A DNA stretch of 64,000 nucleotides. It comes from a virus. A program made the position numbers and the translations under genes. Below the pieces are notes generated by a model. That model ran no database searches, was not told where the DNA came from, and was given only the letters and a program-made list of their open reading frames with translations. This document shows, piece after piece, positions 1-48,250 of this stretch; the first letter of the stretch is position 1; each line of letters opens with the position of its first letter. The DNA lies in the UHGV virus genome UHGV-0038492, one strand, 5' to 3'.

Positions 1-284
1 TGCGCGGTCAAGCGTTTATCGACGCTTTTAACGTTTTCGTTGCTGCTGCGATTAAACACAAGCGTAGCATCTTCTATTACCCGAATGTGAACTACCACCT
101 GGATTGGTTCCACGATTCTGCTGAACGTGAAACTTACGTGGTGTTTATCAACATGCTGGTACGTTTTGCTAACTCTCAAGATAAAGCAAACTTCGCACAG
201 CGTGACAACGTTAACCGTCTGCTGCAACGCGTAACTGACCCAGAACTGCAACAGCTGCTGGCGTACTGCTTCAACGCGGCTTAA
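1..284 (+). CDS. hypothetical protein, C-terminal part (gene begins upstream of window)
   Basis: Frame is open from the window edge to TAA at 282-284; terminator hairpin follows immediately. Confidence 0.5.
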   Translation, partial: RGQAFIDAFNVFVAAAIKHKRSIFYYPNVNYHLDWFHDSAERETYVVFINMLVRFANSQDKANFAQRDNVNRLLQRVTDPELQQLLAYCFNAA

Positions 285-291
285 TAAGCAT

Positions 292-331
292 TACCCTACT
301 CCTCTCGGGAGTAGGGTAGCTTTTATTTTTT
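292..331 (+). terminator. Rho-independent terminator between convergent genes
   Basis: Stem taccctactcc / ggagtagggta with loop tctcg, then gcttttatttttt. Confidence 0.75.
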
Positions 332-332
332 C

Positions 333-2113
333 TTAGTGAGTGGTTTTGATGTATTCAAACGGATCGGTAACGGTTTCTCCCTGACGACGTAAGAATGCTT
401 CTAACACAACGTTCTTATCCGGCAGTAAGAAGAAGTCCGTTGCGATTTCCATTGCATTAACACGCCCTGCGGTAAGGTTAATCCCTACACGACGACGTAC
501 TTCTTCAGGAACACCATGAATACTCAGCAACTCGATTAACGTTGTTTCACGAGACTGGTTCATCATGTTCGTTGCAGAAGGATACGCCTGGGTTAAGTCC
601 GCATCTGCGGTTTGCCCACGGAAAGCAGTGTAGAAATCATCAAACTCTTTAATGATTCCTCGCAGACCGTTTTCTGCGTTCATACACGCAGTTAACGTAA
701 CAATCCAACCGTCCGTACCGATAACTTCTTCATCGAAATCATTACGCATTGCACTACCTACACAACCGATAACCAATCCTTGTTCATAAAGGTAATAGGT
801 GTAAGCAATACAAATACGTTTTGGTAACGAAGGGAAGATATCGTACATCGAATAACCTGCCAGTACGGAAATTGCCGAAGACAAGTCGTTCGTCTTTTTA
901 TCCAACAACACAATCATCAGGTTATCGAAGATGTTATAAACGCAGTATTCGAGCGGGAACTCTTTCTGTGCTTTTAAGTGCCATTCCAGTTTCTCCTCGT
1001 AAGGCAACTCTGGCAAGTCTAACTTGTTTAAGCCCAGTTCGGTTTCCAGAATAGCGTTAAGTTTGTAAGAAGGACGTTGGCCTTCGTGAACACGCAGTGA
1101 ACGAAATAGACACATTGCATCCACACAGTAGAACGATGCGGTACAATAAAGTACGTGCCACTGTTGTGAAGGTGCTTTGGTCAGTGATTTCGATTCCGTT
1201 TTCTTCGATGCTTCGTCTTTCTTGAAGTAAACACGACGGTATTGTTTCGGTACATCAGGATGGCAAAAGACGTCTTCTGGTGGAATCCCTGCGGCTTCCA
1301 GTGCTTCTAACATGCGTGAAATATCGAACTCGTGGTTCCATGCAACTAATAAGTCAGGTAGACGAGGGTGAATCTCTTCAAACATGCGTTGAATACAGCA
1401 GCCAGAGTTTAAGCATTCGTAAACGAAGATTTTATATCCGTCGATAACGTCTTTGATTTCAGTCTTAGGATTGCCTTCTTTGTCTTTGCCACGAAAAGCA
1501 ATTTTAGAAAGTAACTCCTTCGCACGTTTAATTAGTCGCGCTTCGAAGTTCTCACGGCCACAACGCGCAACGTAGTCTTTCGTTGCGAAGAAATGAATTT
1601 CGTCATCCAAAACAAAACTCATAATCCAAGGGTCTCGAGATTTGTCTTCTTCTCGAGTTTCCACGTCGTATACACAAATACGGTTAGGTGAAACGGCGTT
1701 AGGCCATTTCTTTACATACCTTTCTTTAATCCAGCTGGTGATAGGTAAGTCAGCCCAGTATACGTACGGAGAGGTACAGACTTGGCGTAATGAACGTTTT
1801 TTGTCAGGAAATCTTGCCCCTAGACCCATCTGGATAGTTTGTGACATCATCACATCCGTGGTCATGTATTCCTGACACTTACTGCGTTCTTCGTATTCTT
1901 TCTTTTCTTGATGGTTACGGTGTTGTGGTAAAGTAATGTAGATAGGCCGTTTCAGATTTTCACGCATGACGATACGCGGGATGAATCTGCCATCTTTAGT
2001 ATGGACGACCTCCTTTATGAGCACGAAGTCGTTTTCTTTCTGCTGATCGGTTGCGTACGAAACAAATTTGCACTCTTTGGCAATAACGTCTTCCGGTGCG
2101 TAATAGTTATTCA
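333..2113 (-). CDS. family-B DNA polymerase-like protein with 3'-5' exonuclease domain (possible fragment of a split polymerase)
   Basis: Translation shows ExoI-like VYDVETRE, ExoII-like AWNHEFDISRML and ExoIII-like YCVDAMCL in order; weak motif-A-like YDIFPSLP; no motif B/C seen. Start set at MNNYYAPE (ATG 2111-2113) rather than track start 2249, which would overlap the divergent gene. Confidence 0.5.
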
Positions 2114-2185
2114 TGTTTTCACTCTCAAATCTAGCGGCTGCTATACTGATTTGTGGGTAATGTAATTTCTCAAAAGGAAACACAA

Positions 2186-3520
2186 ATGGGATACTGGCAA
2201 AATCACATTGCATCAGTTGCGGATGCAAAGGTTGTAGCCGCAGAATCAATTAAATTCCAAGATAAAAAGAAACTCGCAGAACTGGCAGACATTATTGCTA
2301 AATTTCGTGCAGCCGGAGACTTCAGTCCGGCCGGTTACGAGAGTTCTGGCGTTTCTGATTGGGTATTTAAAACCAACGGCATTAGCATTAACTTTAAGAA
2401 CGGTAGCGAACTCGGATTATTCGACGTTGCCTTCGCAGGTGTAGAACCGCCTAAACTGGACGCGAACAGTCCGGTCATTGCGTCAATGGCGCGTGCACTG
2501 TACGCAGGCAATAAAGACCTGGATATGTACAGTAAGTTTATTAAAGAAAACGAACTGAACAGCACCATTGACGATTCCAGTGCGAAAATCAGCGGTGATT
2601 TAAGCAAAGTCGCTTCCCCGCTCTATCTGACTCCGGTGTTGTTAGAGAAGCTGGAGCTGACCGATTTGGAGGTTGCTGCGGTAATCCTTCACGAAGTCGG
2701 GCACGTTTATTATTACTTCCGTACGCTGATGCGAACCGTGGTAACGGATTTACTGGCAGACGCTGCGGCTAACCGTATCATGGAAAGCGAAGACCCAGCT
2801 GTTCGTTTACGTGTGGTTAAAGACGTTGAACGAATGCTGAACACGAAAGTGAATCAGCCTGAGACCATCTGCACTGAGTACAAGAAAGAAAACGTCTACA
2901 TGCATCTGGTAACAGATTTGCTGTTAGACCGTCCGTTCATTACCGGTAGTCAAGGCTTTGCAAACCGTACCTGGGAACGTGCTGCTGACGACTTCGCTGC
3001 CCGTTTTGGTGCGGCCCCGTACTTAGCTTCTGCGCTGTACAAAATGGAAACCAGCCCGTTCTATCTACTGCGTAACTCGTCGTATATGAACATGGGCGTC
3101 CACCTGACGATTGAGTTGTTCCGTGTGACTGCGCTGATTGCTCAAGCCGCCATTCCGATTCTTCCGGTTATCTCTGTTACGTTCGGGATGATTCTGAACG
3201 ACCCAGATAACACCATCTACGATCCGCCGCAGGAACGTTTTGAAGCGATGCGTCGTACGCTGGTAGAAGAACTGAATACCATCAAAGACAAAAACACGAA
3301 AGCGGCTAACGAGCAACGTAAACGTATTCTGGATGGTATCGCGGTAATTGACCGAATTCTCCTTACGGTTAAAGACAAAGATAACCTGTATCAGTTTATC
3401 TGGAAGACGCTGACACCGAAAGGGCGTCGTGACCGTGCTGCGGTGGATTATCAGCGCGCTATCGGGAAGTATATGTCGAATGACCTCCGTATCGCATCTG
3501 CCATGTTTAACGTCGATTAA
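2186..3520 (+). CDS. putative zinc metallopeptidase, M48/M56-like
   Basis: HEVGH (HExxH) followed ~90 aa later by ERAADDFAA (ExxAD-type third ligand motif), then a hydrophobic segment; RBS aaggaaa before ATG 2186 (track start 2153 rejected). Confidence 0.5.
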   Translation: MGYWQNHIASVADAKVVAAESIKFQDKKKLAELADIIAKFRAAGDFSPAGYESSGVSDWVFKTNGISINFKNGSELGLFDVAFAGVEPPKLDANSPVIASMARALYAGNKDLDMYSKFIKENELNSTIDDSSAKISGDLSKVASPLYLTPVLLEKLELTDLEVAAVILHEVGHVYYYFRTLMRTVVTDLLADAAANRIMESEDPAVRLRVVKDVERMLNTKVNQPETICTEYKKENVYMHLVTDLLLDRPFITGSQGFANRTWERAADDFAARFGAAPYLASALYKMETSPFYLLRNSSYMNMGVHLTIELFRVTALIAQAAIPILPVISVTFGMILNDPDNTIYDPPQERFEAMRRTLVEELNTIKDKNTKAANEQRKRILDGIAVIDRILLTVKDKDNLYQFIWKTLTPKGRRDRAAVDYQRAIGKYMSNDLRIASAMFNVD

Positions 3521-3534
3521 GTAAAGGTAAAACC

Positions 3535-3978
3535 ATGACGCATAAAGTTTCTCTGAATTCGTTAGTTCTGGATTTTAAACGTGCTAACGAAGGTAAAGGT
3601 GTTCAGGCGCAGCGTGCCCTGACTGGCCTGGTTGCATTCTCGCTGGCGTATAATGCCGATATGCCAGACAACGGACCGTATGGTTCTAACGAAGTTTCAC
3701 AAATCAAACTTCGTCCACTGATGAAAAACGTGGTATCCGACGTTAACGAGCTTTACTGCGTTGACTTAGGCACTATTGAAGACCTGACCGTTGCGTTGTT
3801 CTGTAACCGTTACGACAGCGCCTGGGGTGGACGTCGTGCAATTGAAAACTTCTCCGTACGTGAGATTTTCAACGAAGCCTTAGGTGATGATGTTTGGAAC
3901 ACCGTCAACCTGTGGCTGGAACGTTTTGTCGACGCAGTGAAATTCTACATGGATGAAACGCGAGGCAAATTATCATGA
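3535..3978 (+). CDS. hypothetical protein (147 aa)
   Basis: ORF with RBS aaaggtaaaacc; stop overlaps next start (ATGA at 3975). Confidence 0.6.
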   Translation: MTHKVSLNSLVLDFKRANEGKGVQAQRALTGLVAFSLAYNADMPDNGPYGSNEVSQIKLRPLMKNVVSDVNELYCVDLGTIEDLTVALFCNRYDSAWGGRRAIENFSVREIFNEALGDDVWNTVNLWLERFVDAVKFYMDETRGKLS

Positions 3979-5648
3979 GCATGGAAATGACAGCAAACAT
4001 TGCACAACCGCAATGGAAACTCGACGAACTTCCAACCATTATCGAACAGCGAATGGAAGAACGTATCGATTCTGTCAGCCAGCTCAACCTCTACATGCAG
4101 CGTAACGAAGCCGATTTGATTTACGGTTCACGTATTATCGCGCAGATTGAAGCGATTCTTCGTGAAGTTCGTAAAGCGGGTCTAAATCGTGACGTTGCCG
4201 TAGCGACGGAATCTTTGCGTCCAGGTACCATTCCAAAAGCAGTGCAAAGCATCCTGACGTCGAATTACAGCCGTACCCATCAGAAAGAAACCGTCATCGC
4301 GTTAGAGTCTTACGCAAACTTCGGTAAGATCAGTCTTATCGTGATGGTAATGATGGGGATTATGAAAATCCTGAACTGGATTATCAGTAACGCTGTACCG
4401 TTTGCAGGGGCTGCTGACGTGGATGGGGACGAGTATCGTGACAAGCTCTTAGAGAAGATCGATGCGGTTCCTTTCTTTGAACGTCTGAAAATTACCGCGC
4501 TGAAAGAAGCGTATATGGACGCATCGAAGGGACTGAAAGACGGCGAACTGAATAACCTGGAATTGGCTATTCTGATGGCGGATGAAGTCCTGACGAACAT
4601 GAACGCGGAAGACCTGCTGAACAAGCTCAGTGCGGCACTGGGTCGTTCTCCGTTCGTAGGGATGTTTAAAGACTACACGAAACGCCGTCAGAACGAACAG
4701 CAGGTTATCCACGATATCCTCGATACGTTGCTGCGTACCAATATCGGTTGTGCAGTATTCAGTCAGCAGGTTTGTGACGAAGTGTACAAAGGTTTACCGG
4801 CGGACGTTCGTAAAGCAGGTGTCAACATTCCTAACGAAGCGTTCTACCGCCAGATGGGAAGAAACCTGGAGAACTTCTCCGCAGGGTTAAAACGTTTAGA
4901 ACAGTCGTTAAAAGACCTCAAGACCTATTACTTCTCGGGTGACCGTAGGCTGGGTACGGATCAAGAAAACCGTATTAGCGCAACGGGCATCGTTCAAGCA
5001 CTGGCGTTGCTTAACGGTGAAATTGAAATAGGGTTAACTGATTTTGCATCGTGCCGTGGCGCACCCTTACCGACGATAATGGTGAAATCCGATCGTGACT
5101 TAATCGGCTATTCATCTCGTGAGTTCGGTAATGGTTTCATTATCGCTTCTGCGGGCGTTAACTCGTATTTCGGTTCTGCGGCTAACATGGAAATTATGCG
5201 CCAGGAGCTGAGCTTTACCAGCGGTGATTCTCGTGAACTGTTAGCGTGTCTGATTACGTTAGCTCGTAGCGGTATTACCAAAGGGCCAGCCGATACGTCT
5301 CTTGACCGTTTCAAAGTGGTAGAGAAACAGATCGAGAAAGTGGTTAGCCAGTTGAAAGACATGTCTCGCCAATCTCGCTCTGGTATGAACAGCAAAGCTT
5401 GGCAGATGATGGAACAAGCGTTCCGTGACGAAGCACAACGTTCAGAACTGTACGAATTGGACATTGGTCGTGAACTGACGACGATGACCGTGATGGACCC
5501 AGACCGAAACGTGTGGGATTCTGTTGCGTTTACAACGGAACTGATTAAGTCCTGGACAACTGCCGCCGGTGCGCTGGCGACGATTCTGAAACGGGCTAAG
5601 AACAACCCGCTGGTAAAAGGTGGGAAGTTTAATAAACTCGTCGACTAA
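3975..5648 (+). CDS. hypothetical protein (557 aa) with one internal hydrophobic segment
   Basis: Long ORF translationally coupled to upstream gene; ends at bidirectional terminator. Confidence 0.65.
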   Translation: MSMEMTANIAQPQWKLDELPTIIEQRMEERIDSVSQLNLYMQRNEADLIYGSRIIAQIEAILREVRKAGLNRDVAVATESLRPGTIPKAVQSILTSNYSRTHQKETVIALESYANFGKISLIVMVMMGIMKILNWIISNAVPFAGAADVDGDEYRDKLLEKIDAVPFFERLKITALKEAYMDASKGLKDGELNNLELAILMADEVLTNMNAEDLLNKLSAALGRSPFVGMFKDYTKRRQNEQQVIHDILDTLLRTNIGCAVFSQQVCDEVYKGLPADVRKAGVNIPNEAFYRQMGRNLENFSAGLKRLEQSLKDLKTYYFSGDRRLGTDQENRISATGIVQALALLNGEIEIGLTDFASCRGAPLPTIMVKSDRDLIGYSSREFGNGFIIASAGVNSYFGSAANMEIMRQELSFTSGDSRELLACLITLARSGITKGPADTSLDRFKVVEKQIEKVVSQLKDMSRQSRSGMNSKAWQMMEQAFRDEAQRSELYELDIGRELTTMTVMDPDRNVWDSVAFTTELIKSWTTAAGALATILKRAKNNPLVKGGKFNKLVD

Positions 5649-5699
5649 AAAAGAAGTACCCTACTCCCGAAAAGGAGTAGGGTAGCTTTTTATTTTTTT
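5646..5699. terminator. bidirectional Rho-independent terminator
   Basis: Stem taccctactcc / ggagtagggta flanked by an A-run upstream and T-run downstream; lies between convergent genes ending 5648 (+) and 5698 (-). Confidence 0.8.
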
Positions 5700-8652
5700 A
5701 GTCTGCGGTGGTGTCGTGACGGTTGTAAACGATAACAACGTCGTCTTTCAGACCGATGTCACCACTGGCTTCAATATCCAGTTTCTTACCAATCGTTGCG
5801 CGTGCAGCTTCGGATACCACAGTAAACAGACGCATGTCTTTGTCTGGACCCATCGCATCCAACTCAACCCCGATGATCGACGTGTCAAGCGTTTCGCTGA
5901 GCTCATTACCAATCTCTGTTGCCGAGATAGTAAGATGTGAACCCAAGTAGTCGTTGATAACTTGAGACGTTTTCTTACGAATCTGCGTTAACAGATCGCT
6001 GTTGCTACGGTTAGCCGCTGTGAGGTAATAACGAACGGTAAACTGGTTTTCAGCCGGTTTCGGCGTCACCACCCCGTCTTCGGTACGTGCATCGATATAA
6101 CCCATCGTGGTGATAGGAACGAAATACCCTTCCGTACGCTCTAACAACATCGGTTTTAACGTCGGTAGAACCACGGTCACGTAGTTAACGATATTCTCAA
6201 TAACTGCGTTCAGATAGGATTTCGCAGACGCTGTGGTAGCGAATTTATAACGTGCGTCGAAGACCGCCATTTCACTACGGAACTTAATAGAACGAGATTT
6301 CGCAATCTTAGGATTACCGTACTCGTCTTTTACTAAGTCCCCTTCGTGGTGCAGGATAATCTGCTGGCCGGTTTCGTCAAGCTTAGGATCGCCTTTACGG
6401 TGTTCGTAAGTGATTTGTAGCGGTGGTGTACGGCCTGCGTCATACGTGTAAACCGGAACCCCATTCTCATCACGTTTCACCACGTCAATTTCCCACGTCG
6501 CTAACACGTCTTTGTCGTAATACTCGTAGTTGATGCTGTCAGTAACAGCACGCGCTTTACGCCAATAGTACGTCATCGCTTTACCCAGTTCGATTTTGAA
6601 TATCTCGTGGGTAATACCGATAGCGTCACGAGAAGGCGCTGTGATTAACGTATCCATCTCTACACGTTCGTAGTTCCCAGGGTAATAACCTGTGCAACCG
6701 TAGAACAGGTTAAAATCTGTCAGCAGTGGAACAGGTGTTTCCGTTGGGTTACTTCCGTTAATGCGGGTGTTGGTCAGTACCAGTTCGTCGTTACGGTCAA
6801 CGTCCAGGTTAGTTTCCAGCAAGAACTCCCAAACACGTTCACTGCCCTGCTTACCGACTAACGTACCGTTAATGTACGCCAAGGTGTTATCGGAATTACG
6901 AGGACGGAAAGACAGCTGTGCAAAGACTTGGTCATCAGTCAGTGCCTGGTAAGGTGCTTCTGACTTCGTAATCGTACGCAACACATAACCTGCTTCCGTT
7001 TTCTCGATAGTGTAGTCAGCAGTAACGACGCTGAGCTCCGTCGAGACGTTGGTCGCAATAAAGCGTTTGGAGTTTAATAGCGGTTTATCCAACTGGTAAA
7101 TACGCACGTCAATCGCTTTGTTGTTAATGTCAACAACGTAATGGAACGGTGTAAACAAATAACGGTTCGTGTTTGCTGCGTTAATCAAGTCTTCCTTACG
7201 CATGGTCTTCGCCAATACCGTCATCTCGGCATCTACAGTCAGACTGGTATCCGTAAAGCGATAGAGTGTGTCAGGAAGAATGGTCAGGCGATTACCGTTG
7301 ACTTTCACTGTCGGAAGATTAACCAGCTCGTTCCAGGAGAAATAGAACGGCGCAGTAATCGTACCAATCGGTGAGCTGACGTTAGCAATCGTCGATTCCA
7401 ACATCGGTGCTGTCATGAAGTACGTACGACTGGTCACATAGTCGTTAGGTTTAGACAGCGTAAGACCGTAATCGGAAACCGTAGCTTCAAGCTGCTTTTC
7501 CGTCACAGGTAATTTACGTGCACCCACAGCGTTATTAACAACGCGAGTACGTAAGTCACTGAACGAGAGCTGACTGCGACCACCCGACAGCATCTTCCCA
7601 GCTTTTGCTGCAAGCTGTTTAATAGAGAATGCTTTAATCGGGTTGATATAGTTCGCGTCATACTCTTCGTTTAAGTCACGTAGACTGAAGCTATACTCAT
7701 CAGACGGGTATGCAGAGATGTCTAACTCCAACGGCCCTAAGGTCGTATAGACGTCCATCCTGATAGTCCCACTGACGAGATTCTTCGCCATGTAAATAGA
7801 TGGAATCGTACAACGGATGTTGCCGTTACCCACCTGAATCAATGCTGTTGGCGTGTTCGGGTCGTAAACATCCCGACTGTGGGTGTGCTGTATCTCTACC
7901 CACTTGTTGCTGCCCGTTGCCTTCATCCAAACACGAACGTAGAAGAACTTGTTAGTGTAAGCACGGGTCATGACGAAAGTGTTGTTACCTTCGACAGTGT
8001 TACTTTCTTCTTTCACCGCATACTGCATAACCGGGATATGAATAGCCAGCAGCTGTGACGACGTTGTGTTAGTGGACGTTAGTTCCCATTCCAGGGCGTT
8101 CGTGGAAACTGGTGAAATCGGCGATTGTGTTTCAGTAATCCACAGTACCTGGAATGCCGGGTTCTCGTTCGTTCCGTATGGAAGTACACGGATTTCGATT
8201 GGGTACTGAATAGCAAACGTGTAACCAGAAACCGTAAAAACAGTGTCACGTGGGATAACGACTTTACGAACCCCCGCGATTTGCAACGGATACGCTTTCG
8301 AGATTAAGCTGTCAACGTCAATTAACAGTAACAGTTCTGTAGTAGCAGGCTGCGCAAAGACGTCAACGTAATCCACGTCTGACATGTGTCGGAACAGGTC
8401 ATCGTAGGTCTGTGCCATTGACGGGAACGTTTTAGGAATAGATTCCTGGAGCCCCATCAACGTCGCGTGTCCCATCATCGTTCCCATTTCTGCCAAATAA
8501 ACGACAGGGTCGGTAGGGTCACGGAGATAAATTTGACCATCGGCATCTTCAACATCTTGAAGCTGGTTTAGCAGCATTGTCTGCATCGCCGCAGGGTTGT
8601 GTGCGAACAGCAGAAGTTTCTTTGCCAAAGTATCGTAAGTTGTTGAACTCAT
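5698..8652 (-). CDS. hypothetical large protein (984 aa)
   Basis: Long ORF; start overlaps stop of upstream minus-strand gene at 8652 (coupled pair); no catalytic motif recognised. Confidence 0.65.
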   Translation of the reverse strand: MSSTTYDTLAKKLLLFAHNPAAMQTMLLNQLQDVEDADGQIYLRDPTDPVVYLAEMGTMMGHATLMGLQESIPKTFPSMAQTYDDLFRHMSDVDYVDVFAQPATTELLLLIDVDSLISKAYPLQIAGVRKVVIPRDTVFTVSGYTFAIQYPIEIRVLPYGTNENPAFQVLWITETQSPISPVSTNALEWELTSTNTTSSQLLAIHIPVMQYAVKEESNTVEGNNTFVMTRAYTNKFFYVRVWMKATGSNKWVEIQHTHSRDVYDPNTPTALIQVGNGNIRCTIPSIYMAKNLVSGTIRMDVYTTLGPLELDISAYPSDEYSFSLRDLNEEYDANYINPIKAFSIKQLAAKAGKMLSGGRSQLSFSDLRTRVVNNAVGARKLPVTEKQLEATVSDYGLTLSKPNDYVTSRTYFMTAPMLESTIANVSSPIGTITAPFYFSWNELVNLPTVKVNGNRLTILPDTLYRFTDTSLTVDAEMTVLAKTMRKEDLINAANTNRYLFTPFHYVVDINNKAIDVRIYQLDKPLLNSKRFIATNVSTELSVVTADYTIEKTEAGYVLRTITKSEAPYQALTDDQVFAQLSFRPRNSDNTLAYINGTLVGKQGSERVWEFLLETNLDVDRNDELVLTNTRINGSNPTETPVPLLTDFNLFYGCTGYYPGNYERVEMDTLITAPSRDAIGITHEIFKIELGKAMTYYWRKARAVTDSINYEYYDKDVLATWEIDVVKRDENGVPVYTYDAGRTPPLQITYEHRKGDPKLDETGQQIILHHEGDLVKDEYGNPKIAKSRSIKFRSEMAVFDARYKFATTASAKSYLNAVIENIVNYVTVVLPTLKPMLLERTEGYFVPITTMGYIDARTEDGVVTPKPAENQFTVRYYLTAANRSNSDLLTQIRKKTSQVINDYLGSHLTISATEIGNELSETLDTSIIGVELDAMGPDKDMRLFTVVSEAARATIGKKLDIEASGDIGLKDDVVIVYNRHDTTAD

Positions 8653-42302: not shown

Positions 42303-42956
42303 ATGGAACCACTACGTTTAATGACCAGAACGCTACTGATTCCTATCTGGGAATTGAAGCTTGCCCCATTGTCTGCCTCTAATGGGGAGGTCATTGATTT
42401 TATTAAAGACGAAGAATTTGTGTTGACGGCTTTCCAGGAGACGCTGCATCGTTATTATAATGCAGTGCCTTTATCTGGCGGATTAGATTGCCCTGGTGTA
42501 GAAGGGAGTACGTCTGCGTTAATCGCAGAGTATTTAGAACAGAAAGGAATCGGGGTTGGGAAAGGCCGGGTTTATGTGGACGCCGATAAACTGAGGAGTT
42601 ACCAGATTGAGCTGACGTTTCAGATAAGAAAATTACTTACCCGCTACGGTCTTTTCTCGATTAACTGTAAGGTTGATGACGTACGGATGTTAGACCACGG
42701 TTTTACCACTGTCCTCAAAACCTGTCGCGGTAAAAGATTCGTACAGTTTGCGTGGTGGGTACCAGTATTGCGTGGTGAGAGAAAAACGGTGGAGGGGTTG
42801 TACGGCTGGGCGCTATGGAGCGAAGTTCCAGTAAATAAACTCGATGCAGTTATTCCAAAGCACCGAAACGTTCCGCTTAGCAGTTTATTTACTTCCGGCG
42901 AGAACACTACGTGGGCTGAATTCGTTAATAACGTTATGTCAATTGGGGAACAATAA
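42303..42956 (+). CDS. hypothetical protein (217 aa)
   Basis: RBS aaggagac before ATG 42303. Confidence 0.6.
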   Translation: MEPLRLMTRTLLIPIWELKLAPLSASNGEVIDFIKDEEFVLTAFQETLHRYYNAVPLSGGLDCPGVEGSTSALIAEYLEQKGIGVGKGRVYVDADKLRSYQIELTFQIRKLLTRYGLFSINCKVDDVRMLDHGFTTVLKTCRGKRFVQFAWWVPVLRGERKTVEGLYGWALWSEVPVNKLDAVIPKHRNVPLSSLFTSGENTTWAEFVNNVMSIGEQ

Positions 42957-43432
42957 TGCAGCAATTAGATATTACCGAAGACAAAATCTCCGCTAAATTT
43001 CCACAATTACGTGAATACATCAAAGACTTAAATTCGATACGCGAAACACCGGTCCGCATTACCTTAGCGGTAGAAGATGACATTACACACGGTATTGCGA
43101 TTTGGGAACCGGGCAATCTTATCTATTTGGTGGTGGCGGAAGGTTCTCGACGTTTCGGTGTGGGTTCGTTCTTATTGCAGTACGTTCAGTTGAATTCCGA
43201 TCGTCAAATGGTGACGTGTCGTGTCCACCCTTCGAACATTGACGGCCTGTGTTTCTTTTCGAAAAAAGGCTACCAGATTGACCGTTGGTATATCGCCAGC
43301 GACTCTCGTCGGTATTTTCGTATGACGAACGGTAACGTTGTTTCGTCATACGCCCCGCCGGAAGAAGGATATTTGGTGGATTTTATCGAAAACACGCCCA
43401 TCTTTCTCTCTGTTGCGGATAAAATTTATTAA
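42956..43432 (+). CDS. GNAT-family N-acetyltransferase (158 aa)
   Basis: Acetyl-CoA-binding-like motif VVAEGSRRFGVGSFLLQYV, then a GNAT-like C-terminal region; coupled start (TAATG). Confidence 0.6.
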   Translation: MQQLDITEDKISAKFPQLREYIKDLNSIRETPVRITLAVEDDITHGIAIWEPGNLIYLVVAEGSRRFGVGSFLLQYVQLNSDRQMVTCRVHPSNIDGLCFFSKKGYQIDRWYIASDSRRYFRMTNGNVVSSYAPPEEGYLVDFIENTPIFLSVADKIY

Positions 43433-43925: not shown

Positions 43926-44314
43926 TGAAACGTTTTATTACTCCATTTCTAATGTTACTTTCGTTTTCTGTATTAGCTGATTTTAAACCTTACGATATCA
44001 GTCGTTACGAACCCGCTGTCCCTGGCGATAAACCGGTTGTGTTTAAAGCAGACGACCAACCCGTCACTGCGGTTCAAAACGATGAGTTTGCAGTGGTGAA
44101 TTACGGCAAAACGGACTTATGTCCTGCGGGTGGATTTTATCTGGTGAACATCAAACGTCGGACTTACCAGTTTGTTGATCCGGGTAGCTGCTCTGCAATG
44201 GTTAAGGTGACGTTAGAAACCGTACCTTACACGAATAAAAACATTAATATACAACGTTTAACCTTTTATGCGGGTGATGAAATCACAGCACGTTATCCGT
44301 TATACGGGTATTAG
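43925..44314 (+). CDS. secreted or periplasmic protein with N-terminal signal peptide (129 aa)
   Basis: N-terminus MKRFITPFLMLLSFSVLADF resembles a Sec signal peptide; RBS gaggtaa. Confidence 0.55.
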   Translation: MKRFITPFLMLLSFSVLADFKPYDISRYEPAVPGDKPVVFKADDQPVTAVQNDEFAVVNYGKTDLCPAGGFYLVNIKRRTYQFVDPGSCSAMVKVTLETVPYTNKNINIQRLTFYAGDEITARYPLYGY

Positions 44315-44337
44315 TGATTAGCCCCCACGGAGTTCGT

Positions 44338-44976
44338 ATGTCTTTTGTAATTGATTTCGACGTTGGCCACAGACAGAACTTACTTAATCTCGTTAGTTAT
44401 TGTAACAGTGACAGTGTACGGAAAAAGCTTTCGGCTGAAAAGGTAGACGTTACGCTCGTCGGTGCCCCAACACCGGAAGGACGCTATAAGGTAAAGTTAA
44501 CGAACCGTAACGACATAAACGATGCGGTACTGATTACCTACACAAAGCTTCAACTGAACGACTTCCTTGAGATTCCTGCCAAGTATCTGGATTGGTTTGA
44601 TTTCGAAAACGGTCAACCTAAGAACTACGATACGTGGGCAGCTTCCGCTAAAGTCGCTGTAGAGAAAATGTGCCAAGACCGAGGTATGGTGATATCTCGC
44701 GCTTGGGACACCGGTTCACAGTGTCACATTGAGTTTGACGAGTCTATCGAACGGTATGTGGTTGTCTACGAGTGCGACTCTTTTATTTATAGTGCGAGAA
44801 ACCGATTCATCTTACCTCTACACTTAGGGCAGGTGATCAACGACACGACATTAGACGGTCTTGATTACAATAACGAACTGAACAAGAAACCATTGGCGGA
44901 TTTGGACGGTGAGTTAGAAGTGTGGATGGGTCAGGCGTTGGTTGAGACAGTCGTCTTAAGCGGCCTGGAAGTATAA
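44338..44976 (+). CDS. hypothetical protein (212 aa)
   Basis: ATG 44338 with RBS ggag 6 nt upstream (track start 44314 is GTG). Confidence 0.55.
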   Translation: MSFVIDFDVGHRQNLLNLVSYCNSDSVRKKLSAEKVDVTLVGAPTPEGRYKVKLTNRNDINDAVLITYTKLQLNDFLEIPAKYLDWFDFENGQPKNYDTWAASAKVAVEKMCQDRGMVISRAWDTGSQCHIEFDESIERYVVVYECDSFIYSARNRFILPLHLGQVINDTTLDGLDYNNELNKKPLADLDGELEVWMGQALVETVVLSGLEV

Positions 44977-44985
44977 TAGTAACGG

Positions 44986-45030
44986 CGGGTAGAGAGAGCT
45001 TTCGGGCTCTCTCTACTTTTCTTTTTTTTC
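44986..45030 (+). terminator. Rho-independent terminator
   Basis: Stem gtagagagagc / gctctctctac with loop tttcg, then ttttcttttttttc. Confidence 0.8.
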
Positions 45031-45059
45031 CATTATCGACGGTCTTTATGGAGGTGACC

Positions 45060-45614
45060 ATGAAAGACTATAGAATTGCAATCATCGGGTCTCGAGAAAC
45101 ACCGGAAGACGTTATGCAGGAAATGTTAGACACGTTACGGGAAGGGTTTCGAATCTTACGAAAGAAAGGCTACACGATTACCACCCGTTCTGGCGGGTGT
45201 TATAAAGGCCCAGACCAGCTTCAGTTTATGATAGCACGTACCGAGGACGTTAAGAGCGTTTGTTATCTGCCGGATGAAAAGAAAATGTGGTTAGGGAAAA
45301 TACACCCTAAGGTAGAGTTTCGTTATATCCCACAAGACGTTCAGTACCGAGCGATAGTTGCTTCACTTCACCCAAATCCAGATAAGCTCTCACCGATTGC
45401 CTGGGCGCTACACGGCCGTAATCTGAATATCATCGCAGGTGACTGCTTAGACGAACCGGTAGACGCAGTCTATTACTTTAGCGACCACGACAAACACGGA
45501 AACGCAAAAGGTGGTACTGCGATGGGTGTAAAATACGCGAAGTCAATCGACGTTCCTTGTTACTACCATACCGTCGATCGGGATAAGTGGTTGGAAAGTC
45601 TTCGTTTATTATGA
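45060..45614 (+). CDS. SLOG/DprA-like Rossmann-fold protein, putative (184 aa)
   Basis: N-terminal strand motif RIAIIGSRE and C-terminal glycine motif KGGTAMGV resemble the SMF/DprA-LOG superfamily pattern; RBS ggagg 5 nt before ATG 45060. Confidence 0.35.
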   Translation: MKDYRIAIIGSRETPEDVMQEMLDTLREGFRILRKKGYTITTRSGGCYKGPDQLQFMIARTEDVKSVCYLPDEKKMWLGKIHPKVEFRYIPQDVQYRAIVASLHPNPDKLSPIAWALHGRNLNIIAGDCLDEPVDAVYYFSDHDKHGNAKGGTAMGVKYAKSIDVPCYYHTVDRDKWLESLRLL

Positions 45615-45737
45615 ACTTGACTTTAACCGCGTAGTTGAGTTCAGCGATTCACCGTGCGATGGGAACAGAAGTTACTGTGTATCCGTTAGCAGGGTGAACT
45701 GGGTAAAAGTAAGATCAAAGCAAACGAGTAAATTATC

Positions 45738-46871
45738 ATGTCAACGTTAGATAGCGACTTAGAAGTGCTTTGTGACGATTACGACCGACTCGTAGCGTTA
45801 GAATCCATTGGAGTAAAAGACAATTATCCGGCTATCGTTGCTATCCGTAAACGTTGGCTTTTGGATGATGTGGTTGTTGCGTCAGAGTCTGCGGCCATGA
45901 TGCACCGTGCACAGTTTTTGTCAGACACGGAACCTGATAAAGGGATAGGCAAAGCGGCGGCACGACTCACCGGACGTGCGGTTCGTGGCGTAAGTCGGGT
46001 AGCAGGACGTGCTGCCAGTGCAGGTGCAAAAGCATCGGCGAACTTCGCAGGTAAACATTCCAAACAACTTGCTTTACGTTTTGTGGATTTTGCTGAGGCT
46101 GCGGGTAAAGAAGTCATTAAGGAATTAAAAGAAGCGACGTCTAAAGCGACGACCTTAGAGCGCAAACTGCAAAAGTTAAATGCACGTCTAAATTTAATCG
46201 GTGACAAAGACACCTTAAAACCGGTTGACTGCGACACGGGAAGCTGGACGACCAAAGTTTGTTTAGAAGACAAACCTAACGTAAAAGCGTGTATTGAGTT
46301 CAGTAAGAACCTGAACGCAATGGATGCGATGGTCAACGAGTATACCGTTAAAACGCGCACCATTATCGGTAAGAGCAAGAAAGTTACTGAGAGTGGCTTG
46401 GAGAAAGTAGGTCGCTCAACGAACTGGGCGATTAAACGTAGTGCAGGGCTGTTCGGTATTATCGATCCGTTTAAAACGGTGAAAGCGTATCCGTGGCCAG
46501 GTAACGTGGTGGTCGTTGAACACGACAACGGTAAGATTGAGTGGGCGATTGCCCGTGATGGTGATTTTGGCCACTCAATCAAATCTCTGAACTTACACGA
46601 AATCGGTTCGGCTCTCGAAGCCGTTGAAAAAATTATCCGAGCTTTACGTCAGCGTGGTACGAAGCGACGTAGCGTTGGTTATACCGGTATTTACGATGAA
46701 GTTCAGCGAATGAAAAAAGAGCTGAAGTCGTTAGACGGTCGTGAGTTACGCGATGCTACCGTTCGGTATAAGAACGCACTGCGTTTAGAAGATGCGTTTA
46801 CTACCTCGTTAGTGCGTGTTGCGGAAGGCTTACTGGAATGGTGCAGGTTGTCGCTGATTGAGGTTAAATAA
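45738..46871 (+). CDS. hypothetical protein (377 aa)
   Basis: Long ORF; Ala/Arg-rich low-complexity stretch near residue 80. Confidence 0.6.
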   Translation: MSTLDSDLEVLCDDYDRLVALESIGVKDNYPAIVAIRKRWLLDDVVVASESAAMMHRAQFLSDTEPDKGIGKAAARLTGRAVRGVSRVAGRAASAGAKASANFAGKHSKQLALRFVDFAEAAGKEVIKELKEATSKATTLERKLQKLNARLNLIGDKDTLKPVDCDTGSWTTKVCLEDKPNVKACIEFSKNLNAMDAMVNEYTVKTRTIIGKSKKVTESGLEKVGRSTNWAIKRSAGLFGIIDPFKTVKAYPWPGNVVVVEHDNGKIEWAIARDGDFGHSIKSLNLHEIGSALEAVEKIIRALRQRGTKRRSVGYTGIYDEVQRMKKELKSLDGRELRDATVRYKNALRLEDAFTTSLVRVAEGLLEWCRLSLIEVK

Positions 46872-47338
46872 TGCGTATTACTATTATTCTCAAACCCGAC
46901 AGTAAATACGGAAAGTTATACGGCGACCAGGTACTCAAACTGCACAACATGTTGTTCGCAGAAGAGAAAGTGCGTATTAGTCAGTTAACTGGACGTGACA
47001 CGTTCAACCCCATCGAACGTTTAGAAGAGATTTGGCCTCAAGACTATCTCTGTGCGTGTGCGGTGGGTGACAACGAACAGCTTCTGGGATTTATGACGTT
47101 CTCATTGGGTTCTTGCTCAAAAGACACGTTTGTTTACATCGGGAATTACTATGTGATTCCTGAAGCACGTTCTCAAGGGGTAGGGCGTGCGCTTATGGAC
47201 AAAGTCCGTGAATACGGAAAGTCCAAAGGTTGTGGTTGGATGAGTCTGGATGTGTTAGACAACAACGTTAAAGCTATCTCCTTGTATGAGAAAATGGGAT
47301 TCCGTACCGAATGCAGGGAAATGATAAAGGAAATCTAA
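46871..47338 (+). CDS. GNAT-family N-acetyltransferase (155 aa)
   Basis: Classic motif A IPEARSQGVGRALMDKV and C-terminal LYEKMGF; coupled start (TAATG). Confidence 0.75.
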   Translation: MRITIILKPDSKYGKLYGDQVLKLHNMLFAEEKVRISQLTGRDTFNPIERLEEIWPQDYLCACAVGDNEQLLGFMTFSLGSCSKDTFVYIGNYYVIPEARSQGVGRALMDKVREYGKSKGCGWMSLDVLDNNVKAISLYEKMGFRTECREMIKEI

Positions 47339-47339
47339 A

Positions 47340-47972
47340 ATGGCTGCAAGATTCGTACCGTTTCATGACGGGTCTAGATATACTTTTGGTGTAGAGCGTT
47401 ACGCTGTGGGTTTTCGTCCTGGTTGGAGAGTGGTACGAATCGATAAAGCGTGTTGGTGTTTACCGACCGGCATTTTTGATTACTTTACGCCTGAAGCTTT
47501 AACGCGGTTTGTTTCTCTGGGTTCTCCCACGCAACGTGCTGCGTGGGAAAAGAATATTCGTTGCCGTTATTTGGGTAAAACACGAAACGCGACGGTACGT
47601 GGTGTTTATCACGTAGGGAGTCGTTGGTTACACGTTGAGCCAACACATCCCCGTTGTGCCGTCACACCCTTTAACGGTGAATATCGCGGTCAGGTGTACA
47701 CGGGGTTACATTTTGCGTTCCCGGATAACCCTGACCTTAATTATTTTCTGGCTACCCCGAAAGACGTTACATTAGCCACGTTCTATAAATACCTTTTGTT
47801 CTATCCTGCCTACGTCGTTGCAGAATACGAACACAAAGCATTTCCTCTGCCTTACGGTAGAGACAGGAGATTAGCAGGATGTTCTATCGAGAACTTCAGC
47901 AATACACCGACGCTCTCCGAAAAGCGACCATTGATGCTCACAACAACCTCAGAGATGTCGTTAGCGTTATAG
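47340..47972 (+). CDS. hypothetical protein (210 aa)
   Basis: ORF starting 2 nt after previous stop; 3' end overlaps the next ORF by 94 nt. Confidence 0.5.
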   Translation: MAARFVPFHDGSRYTFGVERYAVGFRPGWRVVRIDKACWCLPTGIFDYFTPEALTRFVSLGSPTQRAAWEKNIRCRYLGKTRNATVRGVYHVGSRWLHVEPTHPRCAVTPFNGEYRGQVYTGLHFAFPDNPDLNYFLATPKDVTLATFYKYLLFYPAYVVAEYEHKAFPLPYGRDRRLAGCSIENFSNTPTLSEKRPLMLTTTSEMSLAL

Positions 47973-48250
47973 AACAGTGTTCGGATGTATTGTATGCGGA
48001 AACGATTGAAACGCCAACCCACGACGGTGTGAAATCGCTCCAGCTACACGTTTGTAGTAAACACGGCAGTCTGTCGTTAAACTTCCGTGTAGGTTTAGAT
48101 TATTACATGGTTCGTAAGAGCTATTTAAGTTGTGACGGTGACCTTTATCCGGTTGTCTGGAACAACGATTATTCTAAGTTTGTTTATCCACTTGAAGAAC
48201 ACCGACGCACGGTTTATGAATTTGTGAAAGCTGTTCTCGAGGGGTTCTAA
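47879..48250 (+). CDS. hypothetical protein (123 aa)
   Basis: ATG with RBS aggag ~10 nt upstream; unusual 94 nt overlap with upstream ORF. Confidence 0.4.
   Translation: MFYRELQQYTDALRKATIDAHNNLRDVVSVIEQCSDVLYAETIETPTHDGVKSLQLHVCSKHGSLSLNFRVGLDYYMVRKSYLSCDGDLYPVVWNNDYSKFVYPLEEHRRTVYEFVKAVLEGF

Follow-up and report, generated by a model that had tools for sequence, protein, structure and literature searches.

What does a giant phage do with a protein that resembles the core of bacterial DprA? The question is raised by a gene at positions 45060–45614 of a 64,000-nucleotide stretch of the virus genome UHGV-0038492 (this whole stretch is called the window below). The original prediction, made from the sequence alone, had read the gene as an SLOG/DprA-like Rossmann protein in an accessory region, which could sequester or process a host defence signal or load recombination proteins. 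The analysis reported here places the product in the phage family PHROG 768, gives it a predicted SLOG fold whose nearest branch is DprA, and tentatively favors single-stranded nucleic acid as its ligand.

Phage proteins of this kind have been noticed before. Groups 1 and 2 of the jumbo phages have been described as sharing a conserved DprA/Smf SLOG protein, for which an extra single-stranded DNA (ssDNA)-binding role in recombination was proposed (Iyer et al., 2021; PMC7824862). A later survey reported viral SLOG domains, with fusions to Macro, NADAR, and DUF4326, in 31% of jumbo phages; the domains were stated to be uncharacterised and were predicted to sense or degrade immune signals derived from ADP-ribose (Iyer et al., 2022; PMC9503650). 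Recombination loading and the processing or sequestering of a defence signal by phage SLOG proteins are both, then, already published as predictions (PMC9503650, PMC7824862). The literature on phiKZ gp207 and SPN3US gp92, two relatives of the window protein, yielded nothing on function, localisation, or presence in virions, and matches to those names concerned other phages or proteins.

A Conserved Gene of the PHROG 768 Family

The plus strand holds a single open reading frame (ORF) between 45048 and 45614. Its likely start is the ATG at 45060, because a GGAGG read directly at 45050–45054 lies 5 nt upstream of this codon and because the orthologues begin, with MK(T/K)YKIAV, at the equivalent Met; GGAGG is thus the putative ribosome site. 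The coding sequence 45060..45614 then specifies 184 amino acids and a stop, with a product that starts MKDYRIAIIGSRE, and the boundaries first proposed for the gene are confirmed. To judge from sequence comparison this is a real, conserved gene and not a chance ORF, because the protein matches PHROG 768 (E 2.7e-42, 145.5 bits, residues 1–173 against profile positions 1–169 of 191), is 58–61% identical to the products of syntenic genes in Salmonella phage SPN3US and Erwinia phage Asesino (tblastn, E 2e-64 to 5e-74), and has a relative that is 96% identical. The latter, P0001, is its nearest database relative (E 9.6e-119) and belongs to a cluster of 351 sequences from public read-archive assemblies; apparently, the phage or a close relative has already been sampled, but no isolate genome has been deposited.

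PHROG 768 includes SPN3US gp92, Asesino gp108, phiKZ gp207, RB16p235, and Phi92 gp047, and the window protein shares with this family its invariant residues and its single-domain size. The first three are the orthologues of the window gene, phiKZ gp207 being a distant one. Compared with the SPN3US and Asesino proteins, the window protein is slightly shorter in its middle region (184 vs. 198–200 amino acids). The SPN3US orthologue (RefSeq YP_009153386), which is gp92 when numbered from the portal gp81 (PMC5694885), is annotated as a "DprA-like DNA recombination-mediator protein." The window gene is an ordinary orthologue within a known, already annotated phage family.

Conservation was counted in an alignment of 87 family sequences. 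Eight residues are invariant: G45, G50, D52, R120, N121, and G151-G152-T153; in addition, G10, S11, and R12 are 92–99% conserved. The two stretches on which the original prediction was built, IAIIGSRE (residues 6–13, 45075–45098) and KGGTAMG (residues 150–156, 45507–45527), are both present and, by this alignment, are true family signatures.

A Predicted SLOG Fold Nearest to DprA

An AlphaFold model built from the same 87 sequences has a predicted local distance difference test (pLDDT) score of 97 and a predicted template-modelling (pTM) score of 0.92. It consists of a three-layer alpha/beta Rossmannoid core with a parallel sheet that spans residues 2–182, and the loops and helices typical of SLOG proteins are in place: GSR after strand 1, SGG..G.D after strand 2, a helix with H118, R120, and N121, and GGT before the helix 151–162. 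Structure match values were highest for DprA (3MAJ, 13.2), followed by ShosA (8ZVA, 12.6), the molybdenum cofactor (Moco) carrier protein (12.5), Helicobacter pylori DprA (HpDprA; 12.4), TM1055 (12.1), YpsA (11.8), Streptococcus pneumoniae DprA (11.6), LOG proteins (10–11), and the SLOG domain of ThsA (8.8). Foldseek agrees with this ranking, with HpDprA on top, and a fold search of BFVD returned only unnamed or "DprA-like" phage relatives. The model thus establishes an SLOG fold, in which DprA is the nearest branch by a narrow margin only; both the Rossmann core and the SLOG kinship that were originally proposed are borne out.

Single-protein searches gave little. A phmmer search of PDB returned chance matches only (Xaa-Pro dipeptidase, E 0.24), Pfam only sub-threshold matches to YAcAr and TyrRS-C, and NCBIfam nothing meaningful; against the DprA family PF02481 there was no match even at E ≤ 10, nor was there one to NCBIfam dprA. 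With no significant match, a family profile was needed. This profile matches five DprA sequences in PDB (six entries) at E 9e-5 to 5e-4, over its first 55 positions only. In a profile comparison with hhalign, it aligns with residues 107–250 of Escherichia coli Smf, the whole Rossmann domain, over 144 columns (E 3e-4, probability 39%), and the motifs are in register: GSR with GSR, RSGGAxGaD with TSGLARGID, LHxRN..II.G with FPRRNRIISG, and GGT with SGS. PF02481 is also the Pfam family touched by most members, if weakly (39 of the 87 relatives, best E 3.3e-8).

The comparison with LOG failed. Against E. coli PpnN, which is of the LOG type, hhalign gave E 0.064 and a probability of 0.9% over 38 columns that were out of register; the best match to a LOG sequence in PDB had E 1.6, and no LOG family was matched in Pfam or NCBIfam. 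The catalytic Glu of the LOG motif PGGxGTxxE is absent from the whole family: at this position, T153+3, the window protein has Gly and 86 of the 87 sequences have Ala or Gly, T153+2 being Met, Thr, or Gln, while GGT itself is kept. The clade is thus considered DprA-like and not LOG-like, because Smf aligns in register, PpnN does not, and the LOG Glu position is Ala or Gly. The DprA half of the SMF/DprA–LOG resemblance first proposed is upheld and its LOG half is not. Identity as a LOG-type enzyme was rejected on the missing catalytic Glu and the failed PpnN comparison.

Similarity to YAcAr-type SLOG proteins is likewise limited. Pfam YAcAr (PF10686) scores the window protein at E 0.037 and 14.3 bits against a cut-off of 28.2 bits, and one of the 87 relatives matches. 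For the YAcAr-type Seurat gp80, which is annotated as a "GTP-binding domain" (L005 4156–4548), the family hidden Markov model gives E 5e-4 and hhalign E 9e-4, the latter over 38 columns only. DruSM1 ORF83, which preprints call DprA/Smf-like, was tried as a family member and rejected: its R89, N90, T112, and D114 match Seurat gp80 exactly, and it is of the phrog_289/YAcAr type. By these residues, ORF83 is only a distant cousin of PHROG 768.

Only 446 matches at E ≤ 0.001 emerged when 1.84 billion cluster representatives were searched exhaustively. Of the 150 relatives listed, nearly all are either multi-domain or short and of the phage type, and the DprA cut-off is reached by none of those scanned. 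The family thus appears to be well separated from cellular DprA, a statement that is partly inference.

The Ligand Pocket

In the model, the residues of the DprA ligand pocket (GSR, SGG..G.D, H..RN, and GGT) are kept at the C-terminal edge of the sheet; the motifs are listed in Table 1 together with the signals upstream of the gene. The R12 loop aligns with GSR of E. coli Smf and with GTR of HpDprA. The Arg of this motif, R52 in HpDprA and R139 in ShosA, is an ssDNA-binding residue, and HpDprA binds ssDNA through R52, R143, and R170 (PMC12961424). ShosA does so through the arginines equivalent to these three, and also binds RecA (PMC12961424). In the window protein, R12 aligns with the first of them; R120, present in 87 of 87 sequences, is the probable equivalent of R143, as inferred through the Arg of the RN pair in E. 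coli Smf, HpDprA itself not being aligned there; and the third position is occupied by K158, which is Lys or Arg in 50 of the 87. This conservation is compatible with the binding of ssDNA, and equally with that of a nucleotide.

Other features are particular to the family. R43, found in 70 of 87 sequences (80%), adds a basic residue to the pocket relative to DprA, and the strand-2 glycine loop of SPN3US-like phages carries a one-residue insertion. H118, which lies on a modelled helix of residues 112–126, occurs in 83 of the 87 sequences, and some members have Met instead; the helix after strand 3 is the site of signature residues in SLOG/TIR-class domains (PMC9503650). The H-P motif is invariant in 32 multi-domain homologues as well. 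Overall, the family is mildly basic, with a median isoelectric point of 8.3.

Table 1. Motifs of the SLOG protein and signals upstream of its gene, in window coordinates.
Feature	Position	Strand	Remarks
G10-S11-R12 loop after strand 1	45087..45095	+	DprA G-S/T-R motif; R12 in 85/87
R43-S44-G45-G46-C-Y-K-G50-P-D52 glycine loop after strand 2	45186..45215	+	Equivalent to DprA SG-x-A-x-G-x-D; aligns with TSGLARGID of Smf
H104-P105, family-specific motif	45369..45374	+	H104 in 82/87, P105 in 79/87; Smf has F-P at the aligned position
H118-G-R120-N121 on helix after strand 3	45411..45422	+	Equivalent to DprA FPxRNRII; aligns with PRRN of Smf
G151-G152-T153 phosphate-binding loop, N-terminus of helix 151–162	45510..45518	+	Equivalent to DprA SG(S/T) and to the LOG GxGT loop
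TATG motif abutting Shine-Dalgarno GGAGG	45046..45054	+	TATGGAGG; ends 5 nt before ATG; direct reading
Intrinsic terminator-like hairpin	44987..45028	+	14-bp stem 44987–45018, then T-run; terminator scan

Genomic Context and Upstream Signals

A megablast search of 44000–47000 against 50,697 GenBank phage records gave no match; with the phage thus new at the nucleotide level, the context was taken from synteny at the protein level. At this level, the region is collinear with SPN3US and Asesino, and the shared order runs from virion structural genes through an acetyltransferase, three unknown genes, the SLOG gene, and an internal head protein to a second, GNAT-type acetyltransferase. The two acetyltransferase genes (42956–43432, phrog_7861; 46871–47338, phrog_3810) bracket the block that contains the SLOG gene and the internal-head-protein gene (45738–46871), an arrangement common to SPN3US and Asesino. 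By these comparisons, the gene belongs to a giant SPN3US-like phage and is conserved and syntenic across such phages; it sits among virion and internal-head-protein genes, and "accessory region" is a misleading name for its surroundings. Asesino has been treated as a nucleus-forming chimallivirus (PMC13309987).

Some features set the window apart. It lacks the gene of about 90 amino acids that follows the SLOG gene in SPN3US (gp93) and Asesino (gp109); a 123-bp gap at 45615–45737 stands in its place, and tblastn of the whole window found no trace of it. The window holds one SLOG copy only, and a search of its 64 kb for NAMPT, Macro, NADAR, DUF4326, phosphoribosyl pyrophosphate (PRPP) synthetase, kinase, and RNA ligase genes found none. 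Further downstream, two PHROG-supported genes (47340–47972, phrog_9255; 47879–48250, phrog_8535) overlap by 94 nt as listed, and their SPN3US equivalents by 55 nt; this may be a true overlap, or the downstream gene may have been given a start too far upstream.

The terminator-like hairpin of Table 1 sits between the upstream gene and the SLOG gene. Its RNA folds at −22.8 kcal/mol (z −4.8), and 0 of 200 shuffled sequences fold equally well. In SPN3US and Asesino, a hairpin with a T-run of different sequence occupies the equivalent place (together with the motif before the start codon, L001 7906–8000 and L002 7929–8005). With this hairpin directly upstream, the SLOG gene therefore probably opens a new transcription unit. 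At the position of the TATG motif before the start codon, SPN3US has TATAGGAGG and Asesino the same sequence as the window, which gives the pattern TAT(G/A)GGAGG; that the TATG at 45046 could be an element of a phage RNA polymerase promoter is speculation.

Distribution, Fusions, and Neighbors in Other Phages

With the window protein as query, tblastn found relatives in 427 phage records, and with a more typical member in 1,560 of 50,697 (about 3%), mostly of large virulent phages. The phages with the family include phiKZ (gp207), SPN3US, PAK_P3-like phages, Otagovirus, rV5/Phi92-like and N4-like phages, and several T4-like groups. Among the 32 multi-domain homologues, four carry DUF4326, four NADAR, one NADAR and Macro, and one two YAcAr domains; two further DUF4326 fusions were found in IMG/VR contigs. 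The fusion proteins score 19–21 bits against PF02481, whose cut-off is 29.6 bits.

Neighboring genes were counted in 80 viral contigs gathered with 12 closer sequences as the query, in which the SLOG gene was called in 72 loci, corresponding to 49 sequence groups. The commonest neighbor within 8 kb was a NAPRTase-family NAMPT (13 loci, 9 of the 49 groups; Pfam 1.1e-33), followed by a weak Macro (11 loci, six groups; Pfam 6.8e-4, just under the cut-off) and a Pfam-matched PRPP synthetase (nine loci, four groups). Since it lacks a matched control and the lineages are only partly independent, this count is no more than suggestive. Other recurrent neighbors are ClpP, a Dda-like helicase, PhoH, a metallophosphatase, and an AAA_33 kinase.

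Two arrangements stand out. In Otagovirus-like contigs from IMG/VR (L018, L019, L020, L048, L062, L073, and L078, about 1–8500), the genes for a metallophosphoesterase, a putative RNA ligase, an AAA_33 kinase, PRPP synthetase, NAMPT, a Macro-like protein, a small protein, and the SLOG protein follow one another on the same strand. The putative ligase has a KxNG motif and no Pfam match, and the cassette looks like an RNA-repair set joined to a set for NAD+ salvage and ADP-ribose. In RB16 (L007 2923–4540) and Klebsiella phage Roth01 (L009 2994–4549), the SLOG gene overlaps or abuts the 3′ end of the RNA ligase 2 gene (rnlB); in RB16 it overlaps, with NAMPT 1.3 kb downstream. This arrangement in two different T4-like genera suggests translational coupling.

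In six metagenomic proteins of 4,146–4,963 amino acids (P0112, P0127, P0140, P0142, P0157, and P0159), a PHROG 768 SLOG domain lies at the extreme C-terminus. In P0112 (L012 1001–14110), it covers residues 4186–4348 (E 6e-42), and the next gene encodes a tail-fibre-like protein of 1,621 amino acids. Of the six, P0112 and P0157 were scanned, and the rest of each has no Pfam match; P0112 has no other PHROG match. The architecture suggests a virion or ejected protein that delivers the domain, and some phages might thus bring an SLOG domain in with their genome, on the C-terminus of proteins of 4,100–5,000 amino acids encoded beside tail genes.

Proposed Function and Alternatives

From the model, the gene would encode a minimal phage-type DprA: an SLOG/Rossmann core alone, without a SAM or winged-helix domain. 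By analogy, its favored ligand is single-stranded nucleic acid, bound through a DprA-type pocket, a reading to which we assign a probability of about 45%. It is favored because the conserved residue set is that of DprA, and DprA and ShosA, the nearest characterised proteins, bind ssDNA with those residues; because the family is mildly basic; and because the substrate of the NADAR and Macro partners is ADP-ribosylated DNA, for which a module that binds ssDNA would make sense. Used as in DprA and ShosA, the pocket would grip the phosphate backbone and the bases of single-stranded nucleic acid, most likely ssDNA from phage replication and recombination. The protein would then be an ssDNA-binding accessory factor that protects ssDNA or presents it to partner enzymes, in support of phage DNA replication or repair. 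In relatives, such partners would be the domains that are physically fused to it, namely DUF4326, NADAR, and Macro, the last two of which remove ADP-ribose from DNA in phages; in the window phage, the protein stands alone, preceded by a terminator and surrounded by head and virion genes. Its import into the phage nucleus would be expected if, in this nucleus-forming lineage, it acts on phage DNA.

The main rival holds that the protein binds or processes a soluble ligand derived from NAD+ or ADP-ribose, as a counter-defence sponge, sensor, or N-glycosidase. The ligand could be, for example, a cyclic ADP-ribose (cADPR)-type Thoeris signal, ADP-ribose from NADase defences, or a salvage intermediate. 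A role of this general kind is what Iyer et al. (2022) predicted for viral SLOG domains alongside their count in jumbo phages (PMC9503650). The SLOG N-glycosidases LOG and PpnN and the 3′cADPR sensor ThsA are among the structural matches, and the fusions (DUF4326, NADAR, Macro, YAcAr), the three commonest neighbors, the PRPP synthetase–NAMPT–Macro–x–SLOG order of the Otagovirus-like contigs, and the RB16 locus all point in the same direction. So does the distant SLOG relative ORF83, whose deletion sensitises phage DruSM1 to AVAST type III in a knock-out preprint and which has a predicted AMP site; it is the only phage SLOG protein found with a phenotype. ORF83, however, belongs to a different SLOG family (phrog_289/YAcAr), and the residue set of the window protein is that of DprA and not that of an SLOG enzyme, with no acidic residue at the position of the LOG Glu or the ORF83 Asp and with Met in place of H118 in some members. 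Moreover, later work found ADP-ribosylated DNA, rather than soluble signals, to be what the NADAR and Macro partners act on: phage NADAR (AdfN) and chimallivirus Macro (AdfM, including Asesino gp217) strip ADP-ribose from DNA modified by DarT, a toxin that acts on ssDNA (PMC11257639, PMC13309987). The proximity of NAMPT, for which there is no matched control, could merely reflect islands of anti-defence or auxiliary genes, and the window itself has no gene related to NAD+ or ADP-ribose. On balance, a soluble ligand of this kind is unlikely, if still the strongest competitor. A broader proposal, less likely than not, is that the PHROG 768 clade is not a recombination mediator but a counter-defence family of the ADP-ribose world. 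Its members may be nucleic-acid-recognition partners that guide NADAR, Macro, or DUF4326 to ADP-ribosylated ssDNA, in an anti-DarT or related role, or they may bind or hydrolyse immune signals derived from ADP-ribose.

That the protein is a true recombination mediator, which like bacterial DprA would form a dimer on ssDNA and load a RecA/UvsX-like protein or host RecA for recombination-dependent replication, is quite improbable, even though its PHROG and RefSeq name says so and DprA is the nearest family by both profile and fold. An extra ssDNA-binding protein in jumbo-phage recombination has been proposed (PMC7824862), and ShosA, the second-best structural match, binds RecA. Against such a role, the Rossmann core fills all 184 amino acids, with no SAM or winged-helix domain; the protein scores under the curated DprA thresholds of Pfam and NCBIfam; and the family of 446 matches appears, partly by inference, to be separate from cellular DprA. 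The family is present in phage groups that are not known to have a recombinase gene, and it is also present in T4-like phages that already have UvsY; both points count against a mediator. For the distant relative ORF83, the DprA residues of the dimer and of RecA binding are, according to a preprint, not conserved. The classical task of loading RecA for transformation is probably not that of the window protein. Least probable by far is a LOG-like nucleotide 5′-monophosphate phosphoribohydrolase that reshapes the nucleotide pool, as a preprint proposes for ORF83: the loop GGT is kept, and the missing Glu and the out-of-register PpnN alignment speak against such an enzyme.

The choice among these readings matters beyond one gene, since the database name "recombination mediator" goes back to distant similarity only. 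If the link to ADP-ribose is true, the family would supply a component so far lacking from the ways in which phages counter DarT-type DNA ADP-ribosylation or NAD+-based immunity, and a large number of genome annotations would have to be corrected. Should the protein simply bind ssDNA, it would be a naturally minimal DprA core that helps to explain ssDNA recognition by DprA.

Comparison with Known Systems

Compared with bacterial DprA/Smf (PF02481; 3MAJ, 4LJK/4LJR, 5MLL, and 3UQZ), the window protein has a remodelled region of 40 residues after strand 3, a His (H104) in place of the Phe or other aromatic residue of the DprA SE(F/Y)P motif, and, in 184 amino acids searched with Pfam, PHROG, and the model, neither a SAM nor a winged-helix (DML1-like) domain nor any further domain. 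ShosA (8ZVA) is a bacterial antitoxin that is paired with a phosphoribosyltransferase toxin, carries a SAM domain as well as an additional helix at its C-terminus, and binds RecA; none of this is seen here. The ThsA-type sensor, in which SLOG is fused to or paired with a SIR2 or transmembrane effector and works with a TIR signal generator, differs as well: in the window protein, neither SIR2 nor another effector domain is fused to SLOG, and at the profile level there is no similarity to ThsA. The YAcAr/YspA (DUF2493) phage SLOG proteins share with it the superfamily and the logic of four motifs (in their case GGR, HGDADGVD, YRN, and GGAGT) and constitute a different family; ORF83, which is of this type, has an Asp after the GT loop that the PHROG 768 family lacks.

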